Shown here piece by piece: positions 14,832 to 41,944 of a stretch of 64,000 nt of DNA (its first letter is position 1; each line of letters starts with the position of its first letter). The DNA comes from Escherichia phage FP43. The translations under genes and the position numbers were made by a program. The stretch lies in sequence record MN648445; one strand, given 5' to 3'. The notes under the pieces are model-generated. The model saw nothing but the letters and a program-made list of their open reading frames with translations, was not told the origin of the DNA and did not search any database.

Positions 14832-14860
14832 GTTTACTTCCTCCAAGGACATGATACTAT
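14832..14860 (+). promoter_or_regulatory. early promoter cassette (PeSL-like)
   Basis: GTTTAC 14832-14837, N17, TACTAT 14855-14860; then CAACAACATGAGGAAA RBS block. Confidence 0.65.
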
Positions 14861-14889
14861 AGACCTATCAACAACATGAGGAAATCAAG

Positions 14890-15276
14890 ATGGAAATCGG
14901 AAAAACTTATATCATTAACCCTTTATTTAAAGATGACTTTGTCCAAGAAGCTCCACGCAATAACAGCCGGATGCTAGATTTGATCGAGAAACATGGCCCA
15001 AGTTTTGTTGTGGAAGAAGATGAATATGATGGCGACGGCTACAACGTAGTATGTGTAACCATGGAAGATGGCACAGAATGTTCTGCTGGCGGTCCGGCAG
15101 AAACTTATTTTGAAATTTATCCTGACGAGTTCAAATACTTCAACGAGGTGACTTTAGAAAAGCCTCAACCTATTGACGAAGGTATAGTTTTAGGTGTAAC
15201 AAAAATTCATTGTGTCGTGGATGAAACTAACGTTGACGAAATCATCGAACTTTTGCAAAAAACTTTTAAAAAGTAG
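14890..15276 (+). CDS. hypothetical protein (128 aa), paralog of 15338..15700
   Basis: Shared IGKTYIINP...HGPSFVV...DEFK.F.EV blocks with the next ORF; own promoter cassette. Confidence 0.6.
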   Translation: MEIGKTYIINPLFKDDFVQEAPRNNSRMLDLIEKHGPSFVVEEDEYDGDGYNVVCVTMEDGTECSAGGPAETYFEIYPDEFKYFNEVTLEKPQPIDEGIVLGVTKIHCVVDETNVDEIIELLQKTFKK

Positions 15277-33615: not shown

Positions 33616-33885
33616 ATGTTTGTAGTTCATGATATTACAGATGGCAAAAACACCACACGTGACTACGGTCATGTTAACATGTTCTTTCGAGACTGGCCGG
33701 TGTTTCGTTCAGTAAAAGACGCAGAAATATTTAAAGAGTGTGTTGAACAAGGGTTCATCTACATTTCAGAATATTATGTTGAAGGACTCGGTAAATGGAT
33801 TACCACTTATCAGAAAACGCTGAAATCGCTTCTAGATGAAGTGGCTTATAATAGAACCGTAACCAAAATCGAGGACATCAAATGA
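33616..33885 (+). CDS. hypothetical protein (89 aa)
   Basis: ATG ORF overlapping the ligase start. Confidence 0.45.
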   Translation: MFVVHDITDGKNTTRDYGHVNMFFRDWPVFRSVKDAEIFKECVEQGFIYISEYYVEGLGKWITTYQKTLKSLLDEVAYNRTVTKIEDIK

Positions 33886-35375
33886 TTTTAGATATTTTAA
33901 ACCAAATAGCTGCGATCGGTTCTACTAAAACAAAACAAGAAATCCTTAAGAAAAATAAGGACAACAAATTACTTGAACGTGTGTATCGTTTAACATATGC
34001 ACGTGGTATCCAGTATTATATTAAGAAATGGCCAGGACCAGGTGAAAGGTCTCAAGCGTATGGTCTTCTTGAATTAGATGACATGTTGGATTTTATTGAG
34101 TTCACATTAGCCACTCGTAAACTCACTGGTAATGCTGCAATTAAAGAGCTCATGGGTTATATCGCTGACGGTAAACCTGATGATGTAGAAGTCCTTCGTC
34201 GTGTAATGATGCGAGACCTTGAAGTAGGTGCTTCAGTGTCTATCGCGAATAAGGTGTGGCCTGGACTTATTCAATTGCAGCCACAGATGTTAGCATCTGC
34301 ATATGATGAGAAATTGATTACTAAAAATATTAAATGGCCTGCATTTGCCCAATTAAAGGCAGATGGTGCTCGTTGTTTCGCTGAAGTTCGCGATGATGGC
34401 GTTCAATTCTTTTCTCGTGCCGGTAACGAATACCATGGTCTTACTCTATTAGCAGATGAACTAATGGAAATGACTAAAGAAGCTCGTGAAAGACACCCTA
34501 ATGGGGTTTTAATCGACGGTGAATTAGTTTATCATTCATTTGATATTAAAAAGGCTGTGAGCTCAGGAAATGACCTGTCGTTCTTATTTGGCGATAATGA
34601 AGAATCCGAAGAAGTACAAGTTGCAGACCGTAGCACTTCAAATGGTTTAGCAAATAAATCTCTTCAAGGGACTATTTCTCCTAAAGAAGCGGAAGGTATG
34701 GTTCTTCAAGCCTGGGACTATGTTCCTTTAGATGAAGTCTACTCTGATGGCAAAATTAAAGGTCAGAAATACGATGTTCGTTTTGCTGCTCTTGAAAATA
34801 TGGCTGAAGGCTTTAAGCGAATTGAGCCAATTGAAAATCAGTTAGTTCGTAATCTTGACGAAGCTAAAGTGGTTTATAAAAAATATGTTGACCAAGGTCT
34901 TGAAGGTATTATCCTTAAAAACCGTGATTCATATTGGGAAAACAAACGCTCTAAGAACCTAATTAAATTTAAAGAAGTTATTGATATCGCTTTAGAAGTT
35001 GTAGGATACTACGAACACTCTAAAGACCCTAACAAATTAGGTGGTGTCGAACTCGTATCACGTTGTCGTCGTATTACAACCGATTGTGGTTCAGGGTTTA
35101 AAGATACAACTCATAAAACAGTTGATGGTGTAAAGGTTCTTATTCCTTTAGATGAGCGTCATGATTTAGACCGTGAACGATTAATGGCTGAAGCTCGTGA
35201 AGGTAAATTGATTGGACGTATTGCTGATTGCGAATGTAATGGTTGGGTTCATTCTAAAGGACGTGAAGGCACTGTAGGTATTTTCCTTCCAATTATTAAA
35301 GGGTTCCGTTTTGATAAAACAGAAGCGGATTCATTTGAAGACGTATTTGGACCGTGGTCCCAGACAGGTTTATAA
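33882..35375 (+). CDS. 30: ATP-dependent DNA ligase
   Basis: 497 aa; KADGAR adenylation motif; strong match to T4 gp30 as recalled. Confidence 0.95.
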   Translation: MILDILNQIAAIGSTKTKQEILKKNKDNKLLERVYRLTYARGIQYYIKKWPGPGERSQAYGLLELDDMLDFIEFTLATRKLTGNAAIKELMGYIADGKPDDVEVLRRVMMRDLEVGASVSIANKVWPGLIQLQPQMLASAYDEKLITKNIKWPAFAQLKADGARCFAEVRDDGVQFFSRAGNEYHGLTLLADELMEMTKEARERHPNGVLIDGELVYHSFDIKKAVSSGNDLSFLFGDNEESEEVQVADRSTSNGLANKSLQGTISPKEAEGMVLQAWDYVPLDEVYSDGKIKGQKYDVRFAALENMAEGFKRIEPIENQLVRNLDEAKVVYKKYVDQGLEGIILKNRDSYWENKRSKNLIKFKEVIDIALEVVGYYEHSKDPNKLGGVELVSRCRRITTDCGSGFKDTTHKTVDGVKVLIPLDERHDLDRERLMAEAREGKLIGRIADCECNGWVHSKGREGTVGIFLPIIKGFRFDKTEADSFEDVFGPWSQTGL

Positions 35376-35563
35376 TGAAAGCTTATTTAGAAACAGTTAT
35401 TGTAGCTAAGAAGGATGGTGGAGATGTTTCCACCTCTTGCTCTCAGATTATATTAGATTTTCCTAATAACGATTCCTATCATATTTTTATGGACAATTTC
35501 GATAAGTACGAAAAAGGCTCTAATTTTGAAGTTTATCGTACTTTGCTTCCGATTGTGGATTAA
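35375..35563 (+). CDS. hypothetical protein (62 aa)
   Basis: ATG 35375 overlapping the ligase stop; the track start 35354 is a GTG; followed by a terminator. Confidence 0.4.
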   Translation: MKAYLETVIVAKKDGGDVSTSCSQIILDFPNNDSYHIFMDNFDKYEKGSNFEVYRTLLPIVD

Positions 35564-35584
35564 GAGCCTTCGGGCTCTTTTTGG
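35563..35584 (+). terminator. rho-independent terminator upstream of alt
   Basis: AGAGCC-TTCG-GGCTCT + TTTTGG. Confidence 0.75.
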
Positions 35585-35618
35585 CATAAATATAAATTAT
35601 TACTAAAAGGAAAACACT

Positions 35619-37706
35619 ATGTCTGAACAATTAAATGAAGTGTTTGAATCTGAAGGCAGTCTTCCTGTCGTCAATTTGAACCCTAAAGCTAAAGTTCCAC
35701 AAGTCTGGAAAATTGGTGATATCGATACAAATATTGTAGTTCGTTTATTCTCTTACCTTTCCGAAGGCGACGCTGTAAAACAAGTTAAACTTGGCGACAA
35801 ATACGCTCATGTTGTTATTATGAGTCTGTCTGAAAAGGGTAATCTCGCTGAATTGAAAAATGGCCTTGGTCCTGCTCCTATTGATGCAATCAACACCATT
35901 TTCAATACAGTGTATGAACAGGTTAAAGCTCTTCGTATGGATGCAGTTCTGTTCCGATTCCCTACCAAGAAATTGAAAGGACGTGGACAACAACTTCAAA
36001 CTCTTCTTGCTCGTCTAGTTTCTACTAAAACCGGTGGTCGTTTTAAAGTATTGTCTGCAATGTATCAATTCACAGGTAAACACACCTATGTGATGATGGT
36101 TCGTAAAAATGCCAACATTGAAGATATTAAAGGCATCCCTAACATTAACACAGAGTTGTACACGAAAGTAGATTCTGATGTTGGCGAAGTTTATGTGAGT
36201 AAAAAGACTGGTGAAAAGGTCACCAAAGAAACGGCTATCGCTGGTTCTATTGCTGCTGTAGAAGAAAAACGTAAAGATAAGCCTGTTATTGCTCGTACTA
36301 AAATTTCTCGTCGTGCTATTGCAGCAAGTCAATCTTTAGAAGCTGACCGACAAGAAGGTGAGTTATTCCAGAAATACGAAAATTCTGCTAAAGAAGTTAG
36401 TGGCCCGGCTACAGCTGAATTACTTCCTGAAGCATATGAAATTGTACTAGCCCAAGCATCGTCCACAGCAAAAGGCACTTTAGTTGCTGATATCGAAAAT
36501 AAGATTTATAATCGTATTGATGAATCCTTTAAATTTGCCGATGAAGTTTCTTATGGTAGTGTTATTAAGCCGACTTTAGAAAAGTTTGCTAAGAAAATTA
36601 AAACTGAAAAAACAACATCTGTTAAAGCATTATCTGCTTTTGTTGAAGCTGCAAATGAAATTGCAGACTCTATTAAAGACGAATGGTTTGAAGATTTTAG
36701 ACGTGATAATTTCCAACTGCCTGACGACGTTTTAGCTGAAGTATCTGAAAGAACTTGGAAACAACGTAAATCAGCGTTCTTGTCTAATGTGATGTATACT
36801 TATGCCCGAGAATCGGCTAGAGGCACCTTTAATATAACAATGAATCGGGACCCTAAACAATACTCTGTTGCTGAAAAACGAGCTATTCGTGAATATGCCT
36901 CTTCTGCGTATACCGATATCAATAATATGTTGTTAGGTCGTTATAAACCGGATTTTTATGATGTTGCGGATGAAGATGAAGTTAAACGCGCTATTGATGG
37001 TCTTGATTCGGCGTTTTTAAATGGAGACCGTTTACCTGAAGGACTAACGTTATATAGAGCTCAGTCTATCAGAATGCCTATTTACGAAGCAATGGTTAAA
37101 AATAAGGTATTCTACTTCAGAAACTATGTTTCCACTTCACTAGCTCCTATTATTTTCGGTGGGTTTAAAGAGAACGTTGCCCTTGGACTTGCTCCTGAAG
37201 AAGTTCGCAAAGAGCTTAACATTGACAATAATGACGAAGGTGTTACTATTTCTCCTAGTCAAGTAAGAACAGCTATGCATGCACCAGAACAAATCCGTGT
37301 TAACGTTGGATGGGCTATTGATGGCGCCCATAAAGTTAACGTGATTTATCCAGGACAGTTGAGTAATCACCCTAATGAGCAAGAAATTATTTTGCCTAGA
37401 GGCATTCTCTTGCAGATAAATAAAATTACAGATGCGTCATCTGATACTGGTGCAGGTTTAGAATCCAACCTTAAATTTATTCAAGCTGAAGTTATGTCCT
37501 CAGACCAGTTGGATGAAGCCGTCATTTATGATGGTGATGTTCTCATGGAAACAGGCGAGGTGGTTGCTATGACGGGTGAAATCGAATCAGATGAGCCGGT
37601 ATCGTTCTCCTCATTTGTAGAAAAAACTAGTGCACCTAAAGGTTTGAAATTGTTAGCATCTTTAATGGATTTAGAATCAGTTCCGTTTAAATTTGTCCAA
37701 GGATAG
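35619..37706 (+). CDS. alt: Alt ADP-ribosyltransferase (packaged)
   Basis: 695 aa (T4 about 682); position after ligase, before gene 54. Confidence 0.8.
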   Translation: MSEQLNEVFESEGSLPVVNLNPKAKVPQVWKIGDIDTNIVVRLFSYLSEGDAVKQVKLGDKYAHVVIMSLSEKGNLAELKNGLGPAPIDAINTIFNTVYEQVKALRMDAVLFRFPTKKLKGRGQQLQTLLARLVSTKTGGRFKVLSAMYQFTGKHTYVMMVRKNANIEDIKGIPNINTELYTKVDSDVGEVYVSKKTGEKVTKETAIAGSIAAVEEKRKDKPVIARTKISRRAIAASQSLEADRQEGELFQKYENSAKEVSGPATAELLPEAYEIVLAQASSTAKGTLVADIENKIYNRIDESFKFADEVSYGSVIKPTLEKFAKKIKTEKTTSVKALSAFVEAANEIADSIKDEWFEDFRRDNFQLPDDVLAEVSERTWKQRKSAFLSNVMYTYARESARGTFNITMNRDPKQYSVAEKRAIREYASSAYTDINNMLLGRYKPDFYDVADEDEVKRAIDGLDSAFLNGDRLPEGLTLYRAQSIRMPIYEAMVKNKVFYFRNYVSTSLAPIIFGGFKENVALGLAPEEVRKELNIDNNDEGVTISPSQVRTAMHAPEQIRVNVGWAIDGAHKVNVIYPGQLSNHPNEQEIILPRGILLQINKITDASSDTGAGLESNLKFIQAEVMSSDQLDEAVIYDGDVLMETGEVVAMTGEIESDEPVSFSSFVEKTSAPKGLKLLASLMDLESVPFKFVQG

Positions 37707-37740
37707 TTTACAAACACATGGATGTGTGATACTATCATCC
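37706..37740 (+). promoter_or_regulatory. early promoter cassette (PeSL-like)
   Basis: GTTTAC 37706-37711, N18, TACTAT 37730-37735; GGATG/CATCC inverted repeat flanks the -10; then CAACAACATGAGGAAA. Confidence 0.6.
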
Positions 37741-37764
37741 CATCAACAACATGAGGAAAACGTT

Positions 37765-38058
37765 ATGAAATCTATGCTTCGCTTTAATGGTCAAGAACTA
37801 GTAGTTGAAGATGCTATCCCAGCGGATGATGTTTTTAACGAAGCTGTGATTGACGAATTGAATCGAGTATTCCCGGGTGCATTCCATATTGCTATGGAAC
37901 CTCTTAAAAACTTTCGTGACCCTGAGCACACTGATCAAATTTTTATCGGTGTACTGACAGGTCATTTAGAAACAGAGGTACCAATGGTCGTATTAGTTAA
38001 ATACTCTAAAGATGATACTCCATTCCGAGCACCAGCATTTCTTTCATTCCGTAAATAA
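37765..38058 (+). CDS. hypothetical protein (97 aa)
   Basis: ATG 37765 with promoter cassette and RBS; the track start 37693 overlaps alt. Confidence 0.5.
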   Translation: MKSMLRFNGQELVVEDAIPADDVFNEAVIDELNRVFPGAFHIAMEPLKNFRDPEHTDQIFIGVLTGHLETEVPMVVLVKYSKDDTPFRAPAFLSFRK

Positions 38059-38062
38059 ACCC

Positions 38063-38090
38063 CTAAAGGGAGACAACGTCTCCCTTTTTT
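38063..38090. terminator. bidirectional terminator between ORF 37765..38058 (+) and gene 54 (-)
   Basis: AAAGGGAGAC-AACG-TCTCCCTTT flanked by A-run and T-run. Confidence 0.75.
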
Positions 38091-38091
38091 C

Positions 38092-39054
38092 TTATAGACC
38101 TAAAACTCTTGAGGTAGAATTCACCATACCTGTCATTGTGTTTATATTAGACACACCTCCAGCGGTCCCACCTAATCTAGAAAGTCTTGATACTGCACTT
38201 CCTAGCCCAGAATCATTTTGATTATTCCCAAACATTCCTGAAACGCTACTAATAAGTCCTGATTCCAGCCATTCTAAAGCAGCCTGTCTATTTACAGCAC
38301 CTGATTGCATAACGCGATAAGCAAATGTTACATCAAAAACTGTTATCTGATTATCACCATCATACGTTAACTCAGGAGAAGAGACACTAACAGGAATACA
38401 TCCAGTGAACATGACAGCGGTATGTGGTAAACCATTTCGCGCATGTAAATTAACCTGAATATCTGCTTCGACGTCTTGTGGTAAAGCGCGAAGACCTGTT
38501 ACAGGGTCTTGGACCGAGTTTACCCAGTCTTGCATTGCTCTAAAGTTAGATGCTTCGGAATCCATTCTAAAGCTTATTACTAATGGGTCCATTTCTCTGC
38601 CGGTAATTCGGATGTTCGGGGAGTTATAGTTGAAATCCGTTTCATAAGATAATCGGTTCTCAGGCATTTTTACAGAATAAATCATTAAACCTGTATTATT
38701 ATACGCCATATTGAAGAAGTCTATCAGATAAGATCCTACCGTGAACTCACCTAACAAGCTTTGTACCGTACGTTGGCTCATTGCTCCAATCAGATATTTA
38801 CTTATACCTGATTTTCGAATTAATTTCTGTGTTCCTGCTGTAATCAGGGTTGTTACGCCCTGATTGATATCACCTTGAGTTAATCCTAACCAATCAGAAT
38901 CCAACCCTAAGTTATTATAAGCAAAACTACCAATTGACGAAATTAGTGAAGATGATTTGGTCGATGGCGTAGTAGCAAATACACAACTAAACATATTGTT
39001 TCGTTGGAAATCTGCATTTATAGCTTGGTTATTAAATTCTTCTAAAGAGTACAT
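38092..39054 (-). CDS. 54: gp54 baseplate tail tube initiator
   Basis: 320 aa as in T4; gene order. Confidence 0.85.
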   Translation of the reverse strand: MYSLEEFNNQAINADFQRNNMFSCVFATTPSTKSSSLISSIGSFAYNNLGLDSDWLGLTQGDINQGVTTLITAGTQKLIRKSGISKYLIGAMSQRTVQSLLGEFTVGSYLIDFFNMAYNNTGLMIYSVKMPENRLSYETDFNYNSPNIRITGREMDPLVISFRMDSEASNFRAMQDWVNSVQDPVTGLRALPQDVEADIQVNLHARNGLPHTAVMFTGCIPVSVSSPELTYDGDNQITVFDVTFAYRVMQSGAVNRQAALEWLESGLISSVSGMFGNNQNDSGLGSAVSRLSRLGGTAGGVSNINTMTGMVNSTSRVLGL

Positions 39055-40163
39055 TAGAAAGTCCCCGCATAAAGTGAAGAACGGTTTAATGTAATAATTT
39101 CTCGCATTGTTATCTCTAACGTAAATGTTGACGGTAAGTTAGGAGCAACAGCGAGACCATTAAATTGTCCATTTGGAGTTTTATCAAAACGTACACTTTG
39201 AATTTGACATGGGCCAAATACATCAGTTAACCCGTCAAATTTAGATGTATAACCAAAGTTTTTAACCATCCAAATTGTAGGGTTGCTTACAACTAATACA
39301 TTTGTTAATGACGCAGTAATCTTTTCAAACAATGTCTTATTTTTTACTGCATCATCTGGCGTCATAGGCTCAATAAACGTTGAACGGTACCATTCGTCTA
39401 AATAACTTTTAATCTCTTGGGCGTACTGTGATTTACCGGTCTCACCATATGAGAAATAGTTAAAATACTGGTAAATGTTTATAATAGCCATAAGGTCTTC
39501 AGTTGAACGTGGAGTTAAATCCCATGTAAAGACTTTAGTACGGTTCTCAGCACCGCCATACATACTACGAGAAGTCGTATAAATCTGTTCGTTATTATCG
39601 GCCATAAGCCCTTGAGTAATAGAATCTAATGCACCAAAGACTGCAGTGGAAGCAATGTTACTTAAAACACCTGTAGCAGTACCTCCACCTTTAGTAATAA
39701 GGCTATCACCGATATCATTAAAACGATGCGAAGTTGTATCAACGTCAGATTTGGAACGTGGCAAAAGTATATTAGCAACAGGAGTTTTATTTATAGTAGA
39801 CTTATTAGCTCCGGCAGGAAGCAATCCATTTGAGAATTTAGTCACTGCATCTTTCACGTTATCAGTTAAATCTGATATGATACCATTAGATGAAGTCCCG
39901 GCGTATGCCGGACGTAAATTCCTGAGGGATCCTGAATCGCGTGCAGACATATTGTACGCGGTAAATAATAATCCATTCTTATAAAGGTCTGTTACCTGGA
40001 AGTCTCCTGTGGAGTCATTTCCGGCTGCTCTTCCTGTAGGAAATTGAGCAACATAAGTTTTAGTAGTTGTTTCGGTTTTAGTGCTTTGCCCAGCACTTTC
40101 TGAGACTGGGATTGCTTTATTTAAATCCTTTGCATCTACTACTATTTCTTTTACACTAATCAT
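39054..40163 (-). CDS. 48: gp48 baseplate tail tube cap
   Basis: 369 aa (T4 364); gene order. Confidence 0.85.
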   Translation of the reverse strand: MISVKEIVVDAKDLNKAIPVSESAGQSTKTETTTKTYVAQFPTGRAAGNDSTGDFQVTDLYKNGLLFTAYNMSARDSGSLRNLRPAYAGTSSNGIISDLTDNVKDAVTKFSNGLLPAGANKSTINKTPVANILLPRSKSDVDTTSHRFNDIGDSLITKGGGTATGVLSNIASTAVFGALDSITQGLMADNNEQIYTTSRSMYGGAENRTKVFTWDLTPRSTEDLMAIINIYQYFNYFSYGETGKSQYAQEIKSYLDEWYRSTFIEPMTPDDAVKNKTLFEKITASLTNVLVVSNPTIWMVKNFGYTSKFDGLTDVFGPCQIQSVRFDKTPNGQFNGLAVAPNLPSTFTLEITMREIITLNRSSLYAGTF

Positions 40164-40171
40164 AATAATCC

Positions 40172-41944
40172 TTAATTAACACCGGTGGCATGGAAAATTC
40201 CAGGAGCCGTTGTACTTGTTACAGGGGTCATATTCTGGACTACGGTATTCTTTTTGACGACATTATTTGTGTTACTAATCGCCGCTACCGGTTGCTGTTG
40301 TTTAGATTCAGAAGCACGTCCTTTCTCTATTGACTGAACTTGTTTTGCTTCCGGAGATTTAGTCGAAGATTCAGGCTTAACTGTTGTCTGAGCCTTTTTG
40401 GCTTCAGCCATTTTATTATTTAGCTTTTCAAATCTAGCATCTATTTCCTTTTTAACAACAGGAGTTTTATTAAGTTCAGGGTCTTTAATAAGTTTACTTA
40501 AATCAGCATAAGACTTCTCGACGTTTTTAGCATTTTCCGGATTAGTCATATCGATTTTATCGATATAATCCTCAAATCTAACCAGTGCAGCACGAGTTTC
40601 ATTCGCTTTTATATACGCCTCTTTACGTTCCTCTTCAGGTAACTCTTTTAATTTTGCTGATTCCGCAGCGCGCTCATCACTTGTACTAAACTCTTCTTTA
40701 TTGTCGTTACCACGAACCCAGTTAGTAACGAATGTTTTGCCGCGTTGTAACATATCAAGACCTTTAGAAACGGTTCCTAATTCCCCGTCGTCACGCTTCA
40801 TTTGATATTTAGCGACTTTCTCTTGGTCTTCTTTCTTTAATTTGTTCCCAGTAGTTTCTTGGAATCCTTCTAAAGCACGTCCTTCTATTTCGTCTGCGGT
40901 ATCACCAAAACCTATAGCACGCAATATAGACGCGGAGAGTTTAGCCATTCCTAATTGAATTAGTTCACCTAAGTTCATTAATGCTGTTCCTACACCTTTG
41001 ACAATAGCAACGGTTAAACCACCCCAGTCTCCGGCTTCCCACAATTGTTTTATCGAGTCAATAGAAGTGAATATATCGCTTAAGAATTTACCCCACTCTT
41101 TAGCTTCATCGGAGAATTTAGTAAAGTTTTCATCAAATAAATCCCAGGCAGAAGTGAACTTGTCAGTCCAATATTTGAAATGGACTATCAATAAATCAAT
41201 ACCGATAACAATACCAAGAATAAGCGCGGCCATTTTTGCTGCTTCAATAGCGGCCGTTATAGTGTATTTGAAAAGCATTCCAGCAATTCTGTCTGAAATT
41301 GATATTGATTTATTAAACCCGGTTTGAACTGTTTTGGTGAGCATTGCGATTTTATCGCTCAATTTAAAGCTAATTCCGCCTTTAGAATCGGAAGTAGAAT
41401 TAGCACTTTCTTGAACCGGGGTTGGGAAGAAATCTTCGTCTGGCTTATTATCAATCTTTTCAGGTGTAGGTAATGCTTTAAACAACTCATCAGAAGTTTC
41501 ATTCTCAACCACTTTAACAGGTATTGCGTTCTCAATTACTTCAAGAGAGGTGCCTCCTGTATTTTGAATAGCGGTAGATGCTTGTAATTTTTGCTCTAAC
41601 AATGTAGCTAATCGGTCTAACTTAGAGCTTATTGCACTAGAAACTTCGTTTATACTTTTAGTGACTTCAGTTTGTTTTTCAATAACTTCTGCGATAAGCT
41701 CTGTGCCTTCAGCAGTATTATCTGTCGAATTCTTTAAGTCTCCAATTGATTCAATAATTCCATTGCCTTTATCTTCTACACTTTGTGATGTGAGTTCAGA
41801 CGCGGCTTGGACATCGTCTAGTTTTGATGAAATGTCATTCAATGCTTCTAATGAATCGGTAGCTGCTGTTGCAGCTACTTTTTGTGGTTTATTATCGGCA
41901 ATGACCTTATTTCTACGCATGGATTTCATTTCTTCAGGTTTCAT
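40172..41944 (-). CDS. 29: gp29 baseplate hub / tail length determinator
   Basis: 590 aa as in T4; coiled-coil rich. Confidence 0.85.
   Translation of the reverse strand: MKPEEMKSMRRNKVIADNKPQKVAATAATDSLEALNDISSKLDDVQAASELTSQSVEDKGNGIIESIGDLKNSTDNTAEGTELIAEVIEKQTEVTKSINEVSSAISSKLDRLATLLEQKLQASTAIQNTGGTSLEVIENAIPVKVVENETSDELFKALPTPEKIDNKPDEDFFPTPVQESANSTSDSKGGISFKLSDKIAMLTKTVQTGFNKSISISDRIAGMLFKYTITAAIEAAKMAALILGIVIGIDLLIVHFKYWTDKFTSAWDLFDENFTKFSDEAKEWGKFLSDIFTSIDSIKQLWEAGDWGGLTVAIVKGVGTALMNLGELIQLGMAKLSASILRAIGFGDTADEIEGRALEGFQETTGNKLKKEDQEKVAKYQMKRDDGELGTVSKGLDMLQRGKTFVTNWVRGNDNKEEFSTSDERAAESAKLKELPEEERKEAYIKANETRAALVRFEDYIDKIDMTNPENAKNVEKSYADLSKLIKDPELNKTPVVKKEIDARFEKLNNKMAEAKKAQTTVKPESSTKSPEAKQVQSIEKGRASESKQQQPVAAISNTNNVVKKNTVVQNMTPVTSTTAPGIFHATGVN

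Follow-up and report, generated by a model that had tools for sequence, protein, structure and literature searches.

A probable alt.-3 ortholog with conserved expression signals between alt and gene 54 of Escherichia phage FP43

Introduction

What is the small open reading frame (ORF) that lies between alt and gene 54 in Escherichia phage FP43, and how might an early gene be expressed at this position? The window analyzed here is a stretch of 64,000 nucleotides of this phage (sequence record MN648445). An earlier note, made from the letters of the window, described the ORF as an early gene of unknown function that is wedged between two late genes, possesses its own promoter cassette and a conserved ribosome-binding site (RBS) block, is closed by a bidirectional terminator and forms an insulated single-gene module. 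Here, we show that the ORF is very probably the Mosigvirus ortholog of T4 alt.-3, with conserved expression signals. Public records already contain this gene and its family, together with its early timing in T4 and the flanking terminators. The ORF is no new gene but one known to lie near alt in T4 (alt.-3, Pfam DUF5498), an outcome that the earlier note had itself named as speaking against its reading.

Gene identity and distribution

The 97-aa ORF is present as described (Table 1). The ORF listing also includes a longer, TTG-initiated form (37693-38058); the start shared by all relatives compared is the ATG at 37765, with GAGGA about 7-8 nt 5′ of it. Residues 1-97 of the protein align with profile positions 1-96 of 96 in Pfam DUF5498 (PF17602; E 4.1e-24, 85.4 bits, the cut-off being the Pfam gathering score of 27 bits), and the protein also matches phrog_1739 (E 9.7e-39). 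It shares approximately 50% identity with T4-group proteins named alt.-3, the T4 protein included, and the same gene is annotated as 'similar to Alt.-3' in phage PhAPEC2. All of the residues that alignments show to be conserved in the family (E11, F24, F50, G66, E71, F92, F95 and R96, together with a C-terminal F-R-K) are found in the window protein. DUF5498 is a small family, of which 1.84 billion proteins yielded 14 representatives at 50% identity, and appears to be confined to T4-like phages. A single-sequence, word-indexed protein search with alt.-3 returned its own cluster only, and a profile built from seven genera recovered 33 clusters. That the ORF is not a real gene is ruled out by its conservation across genera, the confident fold predicted for its product and the detection of the T4 protein. 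A literature text search for DUF5498, PF17602, P39493, NP_049808 and T4p197 yielded chance string matches only.

Table 1. Features at and around the alt.-3 locus of the window
Feature	Position	Strand	Basis and details
Intrinsic terminator after alt.1 ortholog	35564..35582	+	GAGCC-ttcg-GGCTC-TTTTT, read from sequence; annotated likewise in PhAPEC2
Late-promoter-like element	35591..35598	+	TATAAATT, 21 nt 5′ of the alt ATG; read from sequence
alt (Alt ADP-ribosyltransferase)	35619..37706	+	695 aa; ORF listing, annotation
T4-type early (sigma-70) promoter	37706..37735	+	GTTTACA (-35) 37706-37712, 17-nt spacer, TGn 37727-37729, TACTAT (-10) 37730-37735; sigma-70 scan, conservation, published consensus
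Predicted 5′ leader	37742..37764	+	ATCAACAACATGAGGAAAACGTT; start predicted from promoter geometry; Shine-Dalgarno GAGGA 37753-37757
alt.-3 ortholog	37765..38058	+	97 aa, DUF5498; ATG 37765, TAA 38056-38058
GC-rich hairpin and T-run	38065..38093	.	AAAGGGAGAC-aac-GTCTCCCTTT = 38065-38087
Gene 54 (baseplate tail-tube initiator)	38092..39054	-	ORF listing, annotation

The comparison of the alt-54 junction that the earlier note had proposed found alt.-3 flanked by an Alt-family gene upstream and by convergent gp54 downstream in all 31 loci retrieved and across seven genera. T4-like phages of at least eight genera have alt.-3 in this slot, and the orthologous junctions carry the same promoter, RBS and hairpin. 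The occupants belong to Mosig-, Tequatro-, Gapriver-, Karam-, Moon-, Gelderland- and Jiaodavirus (the last with a divergent copy, hhalign 93.6%) as well as to an unclassified Klebsiella straboviridae phage. Protein identity among them falls to about 27-33%, and the persistence of one gene in one slot at such divergence points to vertical inheritance from an old ancestor; the idea that the gene had been wedged in as an insertion is therefore not supported. Elsewhere, alt directly abuts gene 54 (Tulanevirus, which lacks alt.-3 there), Alt-like genes are accompanied by an unrelated 161-aa ORF in the slot (Krischvirus), or alt.-1 and alt.-2 are inserted just upstream of alt.-3 (T4). Since T4-like phages generally keep their gene order, the position of alt.-3 tells little about its function.

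Promoter, leader and transcriptional context

The T4 late promoter consensus is TATAAATA, and the element 5′ of alt matches it at 7/8 positions. The terminator upstream of this element is predicted to isolate alt from transcription of the upstream gene 30/alt.1 region. Neither the scan nor reading of the sequence revealed a terminator between alt and alt.-3 or a hairpin in 37600-37706, so alt transcripts should read into alt.-3, and the insulation of the proposed module holds at its 3′ end only. On the opposite strand, the convergent late operon 29-48-54 ends with gene 54, and a gap of 33 nt separates the two convergent stop codons.

The claim that alt.-3 has a promoter of its own is borne out. 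The promoter was picked up by a simple sigma-70 scan, is kept upstream of alt.-3 in 31/31 distinct junctions, and fits the T4-type early consensus of GTTTAC(A/T), 17-nt spacer, TGn and TAYWAT (PMC4122927, PMC2988021), which is given for T4/PST as TTTACW-N17-TAYWAT (PMC4122927). GTTTAC-N18-TANNAT has nine matches in the window, all of them on the + strand, compared with 0.24 expected, and a looser pattern has 14 (12 on the + strand and two on the - strand), most of those examined lying ~30 nt 5′ of a Shine-Dalgarno sequence and ATG. The TAG stop of alt overlaps the first base of GTTTACA (GGATAGTTTACA), and the 25 nt 5′ of the -35 element, where an A/T-rich UP element would lie, are alt coding sequence (ttccgtttaaatttgtccaaggata) that appears only moderately A/T-rich.

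Two repeats were considered in the promoter region. The GGATG/CATCC pair pointed out previously does exist (37720-37724 and 37736-37740), but it is ruled out as a functional stem or cassette part, as the orthologous promoters examined in other genera lack CATCC and the promoter region folds no better than shuffled sequences (z +0.54). A spacer palindrome, ACACAT-gg-ATGTGT (37714-37727), recurs and is significant within the 64-kb window; as a universal feature of T-even promoters it is ruled out, being not significant in T4 1-50 kb.

The RBS block described in the earlier note is likewise substantiated. The 16-mer CAACAACATGAGGAAA at 37744-37759, within the leader, has a second exact copy at 14869, and four matches with no more than three mismatches are found in the window versus 0.93 expected, a number reached in 0/100 shuffles. 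The leader motif ATCAAC...GAGGA is common to other early cassettes in the window.

In T4, alt.-3 was classed as early-RNA and early-protein, and Alt and gp54 as late proteins (PMC9697503), which agrees with the description of an early gene between late genes, Alt being a protein that is packaged in the virion and gene 54 one of the late baseplate/tail-tube genes. Early expression of alt.-3 in FP43 would thus be expected from its conserved promoter and its T4 ortholog.

Hairpin between the convergent genes

The hairpin after the ORF, previously given as 9 bp with a 4-nt loop, is present but has 10 bp, including five G-C pairs, and a 3-nt loop; the gene 54 stop codon lies 4 nt from it. Its two strands differ. 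On the + strand, the scan called it a terminator (-12.8 kcal/mol, z -3.7), and the U-tract TTTTTTCTT directly follows the GC core, giving a U6 tail. On the - strand (-14.7 kcal/mol, z -3.1), the stem is followed by no more than UUU and then AGGGGUUUAUUU (AGGGG), and the scan made no call; in PhAPEC2, whose record is 97.5% identical, both strands carry annotated ARNold terminators. The proposal of a bidirectional terminator is therefore plausible, albeit for an asymmetric element.

Across 17 divergent junctions, 98.7% of stem positions are paired versus 80.4 ± 2.5% with arms swapped, the best hairpin having been taken in each sequence, a choice that slightly favors pairing. Pairs were counted anchored at the loop; a MAFFT alignment set 3-nt and 4-nt loops out of register. 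Two-sided changes occur at five stem positions, and A/T runs flank the hairpin in most genera. An Rfam search gave no hits. For alt/alt.-3 transcripts on the + strand, the element has the look of a canonical intrinsic terminator, and for the convergent gene 54 operon it is a weaker candidate terminator or 3′ stabilizer.

The locus may accordingly be pictured as follows. Immediately after infection, unmodified host sigma-70 RNA polymerase would fire the GTTTACA/TGn/TACTAT promoter and produce a short monocistronic mRNA, some 350 nt in length and with a ~23-nt leader, that would stop at the hairpin and U6 tract. Later, transcripts from the late-type promoter of alt would cross alt.-3, because no terminator intervenes, and end at the same hairpin. 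On the opposite strand, the hairpin would cap the late 29-48-54 operon and limit convergent read-through, and it probably protects 3′ ends. The start site, the efficiency of termination and read-through from alt in FP43 are what we infer from these signals.

Protein fold and possible function

Alt.-3 of the window is acidic (pI 4.9, net charge -6), as is the whole family (pI 4.4-5.2). An AlphaFold2 model of the 97-aa protein (pLDDT 95.3, pTM 0.83) predicts a beta-beta-alpha-beta-alpha-beta-beta fold. A sequence-profile search of the PDB with alt.-3 gave noise only (E ≥ 0.27), the best Foldseek match of the model in the PDB had an E of 0.24 with TM ≤ 0.35, NCBIfam and PADLOC searches gave no hits, and Foldseek matches in BFVD were limited to uncharacterized proteins of T4-like phages. 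Alt.-3 thus has a confident predicted fold that is without neighbor among solved structures, and, in agreement with the earlier note, which assigned the gene no function, no homology or fold match to any characterized protein was found.

Recently, it was reported that T4 alt.-3 is dispensable, uncharacterized and not the trigger of the CmdTAC defense, on which the wild-type protein has no effect, and that T4 mutants whose Alt.-3 reaches 110 or 117 aa through a C-terminal extension prevent the degradation of CmdA and escape CmdTAC (2024 Nature paper, PMC11618068). Since wild-type Alt.-3 does not act on CmdTAC, the anti-defense idea rests on a gain-of-function mutant. Our tentative reading is that Alt.-3 could be a small, acidic, single-domain immediate-early protein that binds a host or defense protein, serving as an accessory host-takeover or counter-defense factor that the phage can do without in laboratory hosts. 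Systems controlled by proteolysis or chaperones may be involved, because a short C-terminal extension suffices in T4 to block ClpP-dependent breakdown of the CmdA antitoxin. A bolder version, which we consider distinctly unlikely, holds that Alt.-3 might be a conserved immediate-early counter-defense/host-takeover protein whose fold is absent from the structures solved so far and which would naturally act on a host system gated by proteolysis or a chaperone, for example a toxin-antitoxin-chaperone module or a Clp/Lon substrate-delivery step. If this were true, what the CmdTAC-escaping extended mutants of T4 show would be no accident but an activity already latent in the wild-type scaffold.

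Alternative explanations

Small immunity proteins sit beside ADP-ribosyltransferase toxins, and many protein inhibitors are small and acidic. Alt.-3, which has these properties, might therefore be made early to bind the injected or newly made ADP-ribosyltransferase and tune or stop its activity, and both its place immediately 3′ of an Alt-family gene in 31/31 loci and the late co-transcription expected in the absence of an intervening terminator would agree with such a coupling. We regard it as quite improbable, however, considering that Alt does not need Alt.-3 in Tulanevirus (alt without alt.-3) or Krischvirus (unrelated 161-aa ORF), that adjacency is weak evidence where overall gene order is so strongly conserved, and that T4 without alt.-3 is viable (PMC11618068). 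Even less credence is given to a recently inserted mobile cassette of promoter, ORF and terminator, of the PeSL (promoter-early stem-loop) type, that shuffling brought to the alt-54 junction. Another cassette, at 14833-14884, carries a nearly identical promoter-to-RBS block, homology patches of this kind drive PeSL-mediated shuffling (PMC2839356, PMC4122927), and the slot varies at greater distance (alt.-1/alt.-2 in T4, another ORF in Krischvirus, none in Tulanevirus); the same gene in the same slot of eight phage groups, diverged to ~27-33% identity, nevertheless indicates old vertical inheritance, and the upstream stem-loop, a defining part of PeSL, is absent, which makes a mobile origin very improbable.

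With regard to the hairpin, it might mainly be a 3′-end stabilizer or a recombination-prone palindrome instead of an efficient terminator in either direction, in which case the transcripts converging on it would overlap and it would do no more than set the processed 3′ ends. The poor - strand U-tract and the degraded T4 copy with its 5-bp stem are consistent with this, and loop inversions between close relatives show that the palindrome is recombinationally active. In addition, gene 54 RNA is labeled 'early' in the T4 dataset although the protein is late (PMC9697503), which could reflect antisense read-through from alt.-3; this label is not interpretable in that way, as the paper's text, when searched, did not state that the RNA-seq library was strand-specific. 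The + strand, on the other hand, has the form of a textbook intrinsic terminator (7-bp GC-rich core, U6 tail), compensatory changes keep the stem, A/T runs flank it in most genera, and ARNold calls both strands in PhAPEC2. We thus judge this alternative unlikely and retain the reading of a terminator that is canonical on the + strand.

Significance

The locus has little consequence for genome annotation, as alt.-3 is already catalogued. Among the many conserved, early, non-essential genes of T4-like phages, Alt.-3 is a well-defined target: the T4 gene is one mutation away from disabling CmdTAC (PMC11618068), and the partner of the wild-type protein, once identified, would add one entry to the early host-interaction factors of phages. 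The locus also offers a clean natural case of one ORF with an early promoter and a shared terminator amid late genes, and it could serve as an expression slot in phage engineering.

Comparison with known systems

The locus resembles PeSL elements (Arbiol 2010, Comeau 2014) in its strong TTTACW-N17-TAYWAT early promoter followed by a Shine-Dalgarno sequence, an ATG and a small non-essential ORF, and near-identical copies elsewhere in the FP43 genome could provide homology for recombination. It differs in that no stem-loop stands just 5′ of the promoter, where the alt stop abuts the -35 element, the sole stem-loop being 3′ of the ORF, and in that alt.-3 is stably inherited and has conserved genes on both sides instead of a hyperplastic region around it. 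PeSLs are linked to indels and replacements between close relatives; the slot is stable in eight genera and differs in T4, Krischvirus and Tulanevirus. Compared with bidirectional Rho-independent terminators, FP43 likewise has one GC-rich hairpin in a 33-nt convergent gap, with A-rich/T-rich flanks and a compensated stem, but the element is asymmetric (U6 on one strand, U3 on the other), and its function here is predicted from sequence.

The closest comparison is T4 alt.-3 itself (NP_049808.1, UniProt P39493, T4p197). In T4, unlike FP43, two extra small ORFs, alt.-1 and alt.-2, separate alt from alt.-3, which places the promoter within the 3′ end of alt.-2. The palindrome of the FP43 spacer is missing from the T4 one, and the T4 hairpin is shorter (5 bp, tttc loop) and has its better U-run on the strand of gene 54. 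The two genes nevertheless share their position and orientation 3′ of alt and convergent with gene 54, the GTTTAC-N18-TAnnnT geometry, the CATGAGGA RBS and the intergenic hairpin. Their products (96 aa in T4, 97 aa here) both end in F-x-S-F-R-K and belong to the same Pfam and PHROG family, DUF5498/phrog_1739, of which the FP43 protein is an ordinary full-length member.

Identity and setting of the ORF

The phage is T4-like (genus Mosigvirus), and about 150 records, that of PhAPEC2 among them, share 97-99% identity with it in this region. The 97-codon ORF between alt and gene 54 encodes a protein that is covered along its whole length by Pfam DUF5498 (E 4e-24) and also matches phrog_1739 (E 1e-38). 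tblastn with this protein returned matches in 825 phage records, and where T4-group records give the gene a name, that name is alt.-3. The PhAPEC2 annotation describes it as similar to T4 Alt.-3 (NP_049808.1), and the T4 record places alt.-3 (96 aa) downstream of alt and convergent with gene 54. All elements described in the earlier note were found in the sequence where it had placed them (see table), but the ORF is what the note itself had named as grounds for refuting its reading, a known T4 alt-proximal gene: it belongs to an already known family in its usual place and is not novel. The family is small and tight: a set of 1.84 billion proteins contains 14 representatives of it at the 50% identity level, almost all ~96 aa long. 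All members are acidic (pI 4.4-5.2), and residues E11, F24, F50, G66, E71, F92, F95 and R96 are invariant. In addition, P0015, a 1150-aa protein of the representative library, has four weak stretches matching Alt.-3 residues 16-48 (E 3e-4), which may reflect a repeat protein or chance.

Features of the alt.-3 region (window positions)
Feature	Position	Strand
DNA ligase (gene 30)	33882-35375	+
69-aa ORF, T4 alt.1 ortholog	35354-35563	+
Intrinsic terminator 5' of alt, GAGCC-ttcg-GGCTC-T5	35564-35582	
Late-promoter-like TATAAATT 5' of alt	35591-35598	
alt	35619-37706	+
-35 element GTTTACA	37706-37712	
Spacer between -35 and -10 of the alt.-3 promoter, 17 nt		
TGn	37727-37729	
-10 element TACTAT	37730-37735	
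16-mer CAACAACATGAGGAAA with GAGGA 7 nt 5' of ATG	37744-37759	
alt.-3 (target ORF, 97 codons)	37765-38058	+
Hairpin AAAGGGAGAC-aac-GTCTCCCTTT, then T-run reaching the gene 54 stop codon	38065-38087	
Gene 54	38092-39054	-
Gene 48	39054-40163	-
Gene 29	40172-41944	-

Conservation of the alt-54 junction

The junction was compared in Mosig-, Tequatro-, Gapriver-, Karam-, Moon- and Gelderlandvirus and an unclassified Klebsiella phage, and the addition of 26 IMG/VR loci gave 31 distinct junctions. An Alt-family gene lies upstream and convergent gp54 downstream in all 31 fetched loci, and every one of the 31 distinct junctions has both a promoter of the form GTTTAC, ~18-nt spacer, TAnnnT and a (C)ATGAGGA or CTGAGGA RBS. 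In Jiaodavirus, the slot holds a 92-aa ORF that is a divergent Alt.-3 family member (hhalign 93.6%, E 2e-7), with promoter and hairpin as in the other alt.-3 junctions. At greater distance among T4-like phages, the contents of the slot differ: in Krischvirus FL15 (L034 4465-4950) an unrelated ORF of 161 aa overlaps a short Alt-like gene, alt abuts gene 54 with no ORF between them in Tulanevirus ZHF (L035 4358-4387), and a Morganella phage differs in gene order at this region. Conservation across genera indicates that alt.-3 is an old, vertically inherited resident of the junction rather than a recent insertion, so that its description as wedged between late genes is not borne out. In Moonvirus KM16 (L004 1-2940), alt.-3 is preceded by two full-length alt paralogues in tandem.

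Early promoter and leader

The alt.-3 promoter agrees with both the published T4/PST early promoter consensus TTTACW-N17-TAYWAT (PMC4122927) and the published description of T4 early promoters as "UP/-35/TGn/-10" (PMC2988021). The pattern GTTTAC-N18-TANNAT occurs nine times in the window, always on the + strand (0.24 expected), and a relaxed pattern gives 14 sites (12 on the + and 2 on the - strand), the majority of those examined lying ~30 nt 5' of an SD and ATG. An ATCAAC...GAGGA leader is common to several window cassettes, and the RBS 16-mer recurs without mismatch at 14869. The GGATG/CATCC repeat that had been considered part of the cassette is present, but it shows no folding signal (z +0.54), is missing from orthologous promoters of other genera and is irrelevant to the module.

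A second early cassette (14833-15276) shares the -10-to-RBS block of alt.-3, with GATACTAT, a gap of 6 nt and then ATCAACAACATGAGGAAA, the last of which is identical to the alt.-3 leader; it precedes an acidic 128-aa ORF (14890-15276). Papers on promoter-early stem-loop (PeSL) cassettes of T4-type phages propose that short homologies drive cassette shuffling, and this block is a homology of that kind.

A separate observation concerns the early-promoter spacers (16-18 nt) of this phage, which are enriched for short palindromes around a GGA core. Such promoters start at 14833, 22061, 23244, 24650, 30359, 31888 and 37707 (among 14 compared); the mean best spacer stem is 3.93 bp, a value attained by none of 2000 shuffles (2.54 +/- 0.19), and the core occupies a fixed position at the palindrome centre in 10 of 14 spacers versus 16% of random 18-mers. 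The arms of the alt.-3 spacer covary across genera (ACACAT/ATGTGT, CCACA/TGTGG, GCAC/GTGC, CATCC/GGATG, ATCAC/GTGAT). Since enrichment is not significant in T4 1-50 kb (3.0 vs 2.69 +/- 0.22), the palindromes seem to mark a subtype of promoter or a lineage; reviews speak only of 'additional regions of consensus'.

Probable terminator hairpin

On either strand the hairpin folds significantly better than shuffles (z -3.7 and -3.1), and a GC-rich hairpin occupies the 26-34-nt gap before gene 54 in all junctions compared. Its stems vary by genus yet remain complementary (GGGAGAC, GGAGAGC, GGGAGCC, GGGGAGC, GGGGACC, GGGACCC), with 98.7% of stem positions paired versus 80.4 +/- 2.5% once the 3' arms have been reassigned among the sequences; at five positions both partners of the pair have changed. 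On the - strand, the hairpin lies 4 nt past the gene 54 stop codon, the U-tract is just UUU followed by AGGGG, and a terminator scan of the window made no call for that strand; in PhAPEC2, ARNold calls terminators on both strands. These results make bidirectional termination plausible but asymmetric.

Close relatives whose stems are (nearly) identical carry the loop in one orientation or the other, ~10-35 nt past the alt.-3 stop in the alt.-3/54 intergenic region (tttc/gaaa, gtga/tcac and ttgc/gcaa; loci L012/L015 vs T4/L014/L016, L024 vs L003/L023/L025 and L030 vs L028/L029/L031), which points to repeated small inversions at the palindrome. The T4 reference hairpin (L002 5217-5242) lacks two G residues in its 5' arm, which leaves a degraded stem of 5 bp (GGACC/GGTCC); T4-group relatives have 9 bp (ATGGGGACC/GGTCCCCAT).

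Expression of the module

Early expression of alt.-3 is supported by its T4 ortholog, classed as "early-RNA_early-Protein" in time-resolved omics data, in which Alt protein is late and its RNA middle-class, alt.-1 and alt.-2 RNA are likewise middle-class, and gp54 is a late protein although gene 54 RNA is classed 'early' (PMC9697503 supplements). The latter class might represent antisense read-through from alt.-3, but a search of that paper's text turned up no statement of library strandedness.

Bracketed 5' by a terminator and a late-promoter-like element, alt itself appears to be a late transcription unit of its own, preceded by the early/middle unit of gene 30 and alt.1. From alt to alt.-3 the window sequence shows no terminator, since the TAG of alt extends into the -35 element. 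This arrangement suggests two expression routes: an early monocistronic alt.-3 transcript from the sigma-70 promoter, and a later alt mRNA that would carry alt.-3 at its 3' end. Each would presumably stop at the hairpin and U6 tract. The proposed insulation therefore holds at the 3' end and fails at the 5' end. Overall, the reading in the earlier note is partly supported: a predicted early gene with its own promoter, a probable shared terminator and no assigned function stands, whereas novelty, insertion, 5' insulation and the GGATG/CATCC repeat do not.

Protein fold and function

AlphaFold2 (32-sequence alignment) predicts a confident single domain (pLDDT 95.3, pTM 0.83) with beta-beta-alpha-beta-alpha-beta-beta topology. 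Foldseek found no neighbour among solved structures (best E 0.24, TM 0.35 or less), and its BFVD matches are solely uncharacterised T4-like phage proteins, including those of Yersinia TG1, Morganella MP1 and Aeromonas phage 25; sequence searches of PDB, NCBIfam and PADLOC were empty. The best suggestion for its role, offered with low confidence, is that Alt.-3 is made immediately early as a small acidic protein and would bind a protein of the host or of a defence system.

The sole experimental information comes from work on the toxin-antitoxin-chaperone defence system CmdTAC (Vassallo et al. 2024, PMC11618068). T4 tolerates deletion of alt.-3, the deletion confers no escape from CmdTAC, and the wild-type protein is neither its trigger nor its blocker. 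All escape mutants carried an Alt.-3 lengthened at its C-terminus, the whole protein being 110 or 117 aa long, and in this longer form it prevents the antitoxin CmdA from being degraded (PMC11618068). Jiaodavirus KP17 Alt.-3 (L037 4449-4727) lacks the (nearly) invariant C-terminal F-R-K and ends in ...GFIGCIA, a notable difference given that C-terminal changes alter the activity of T4 Alt.-3 against CmdTAC.
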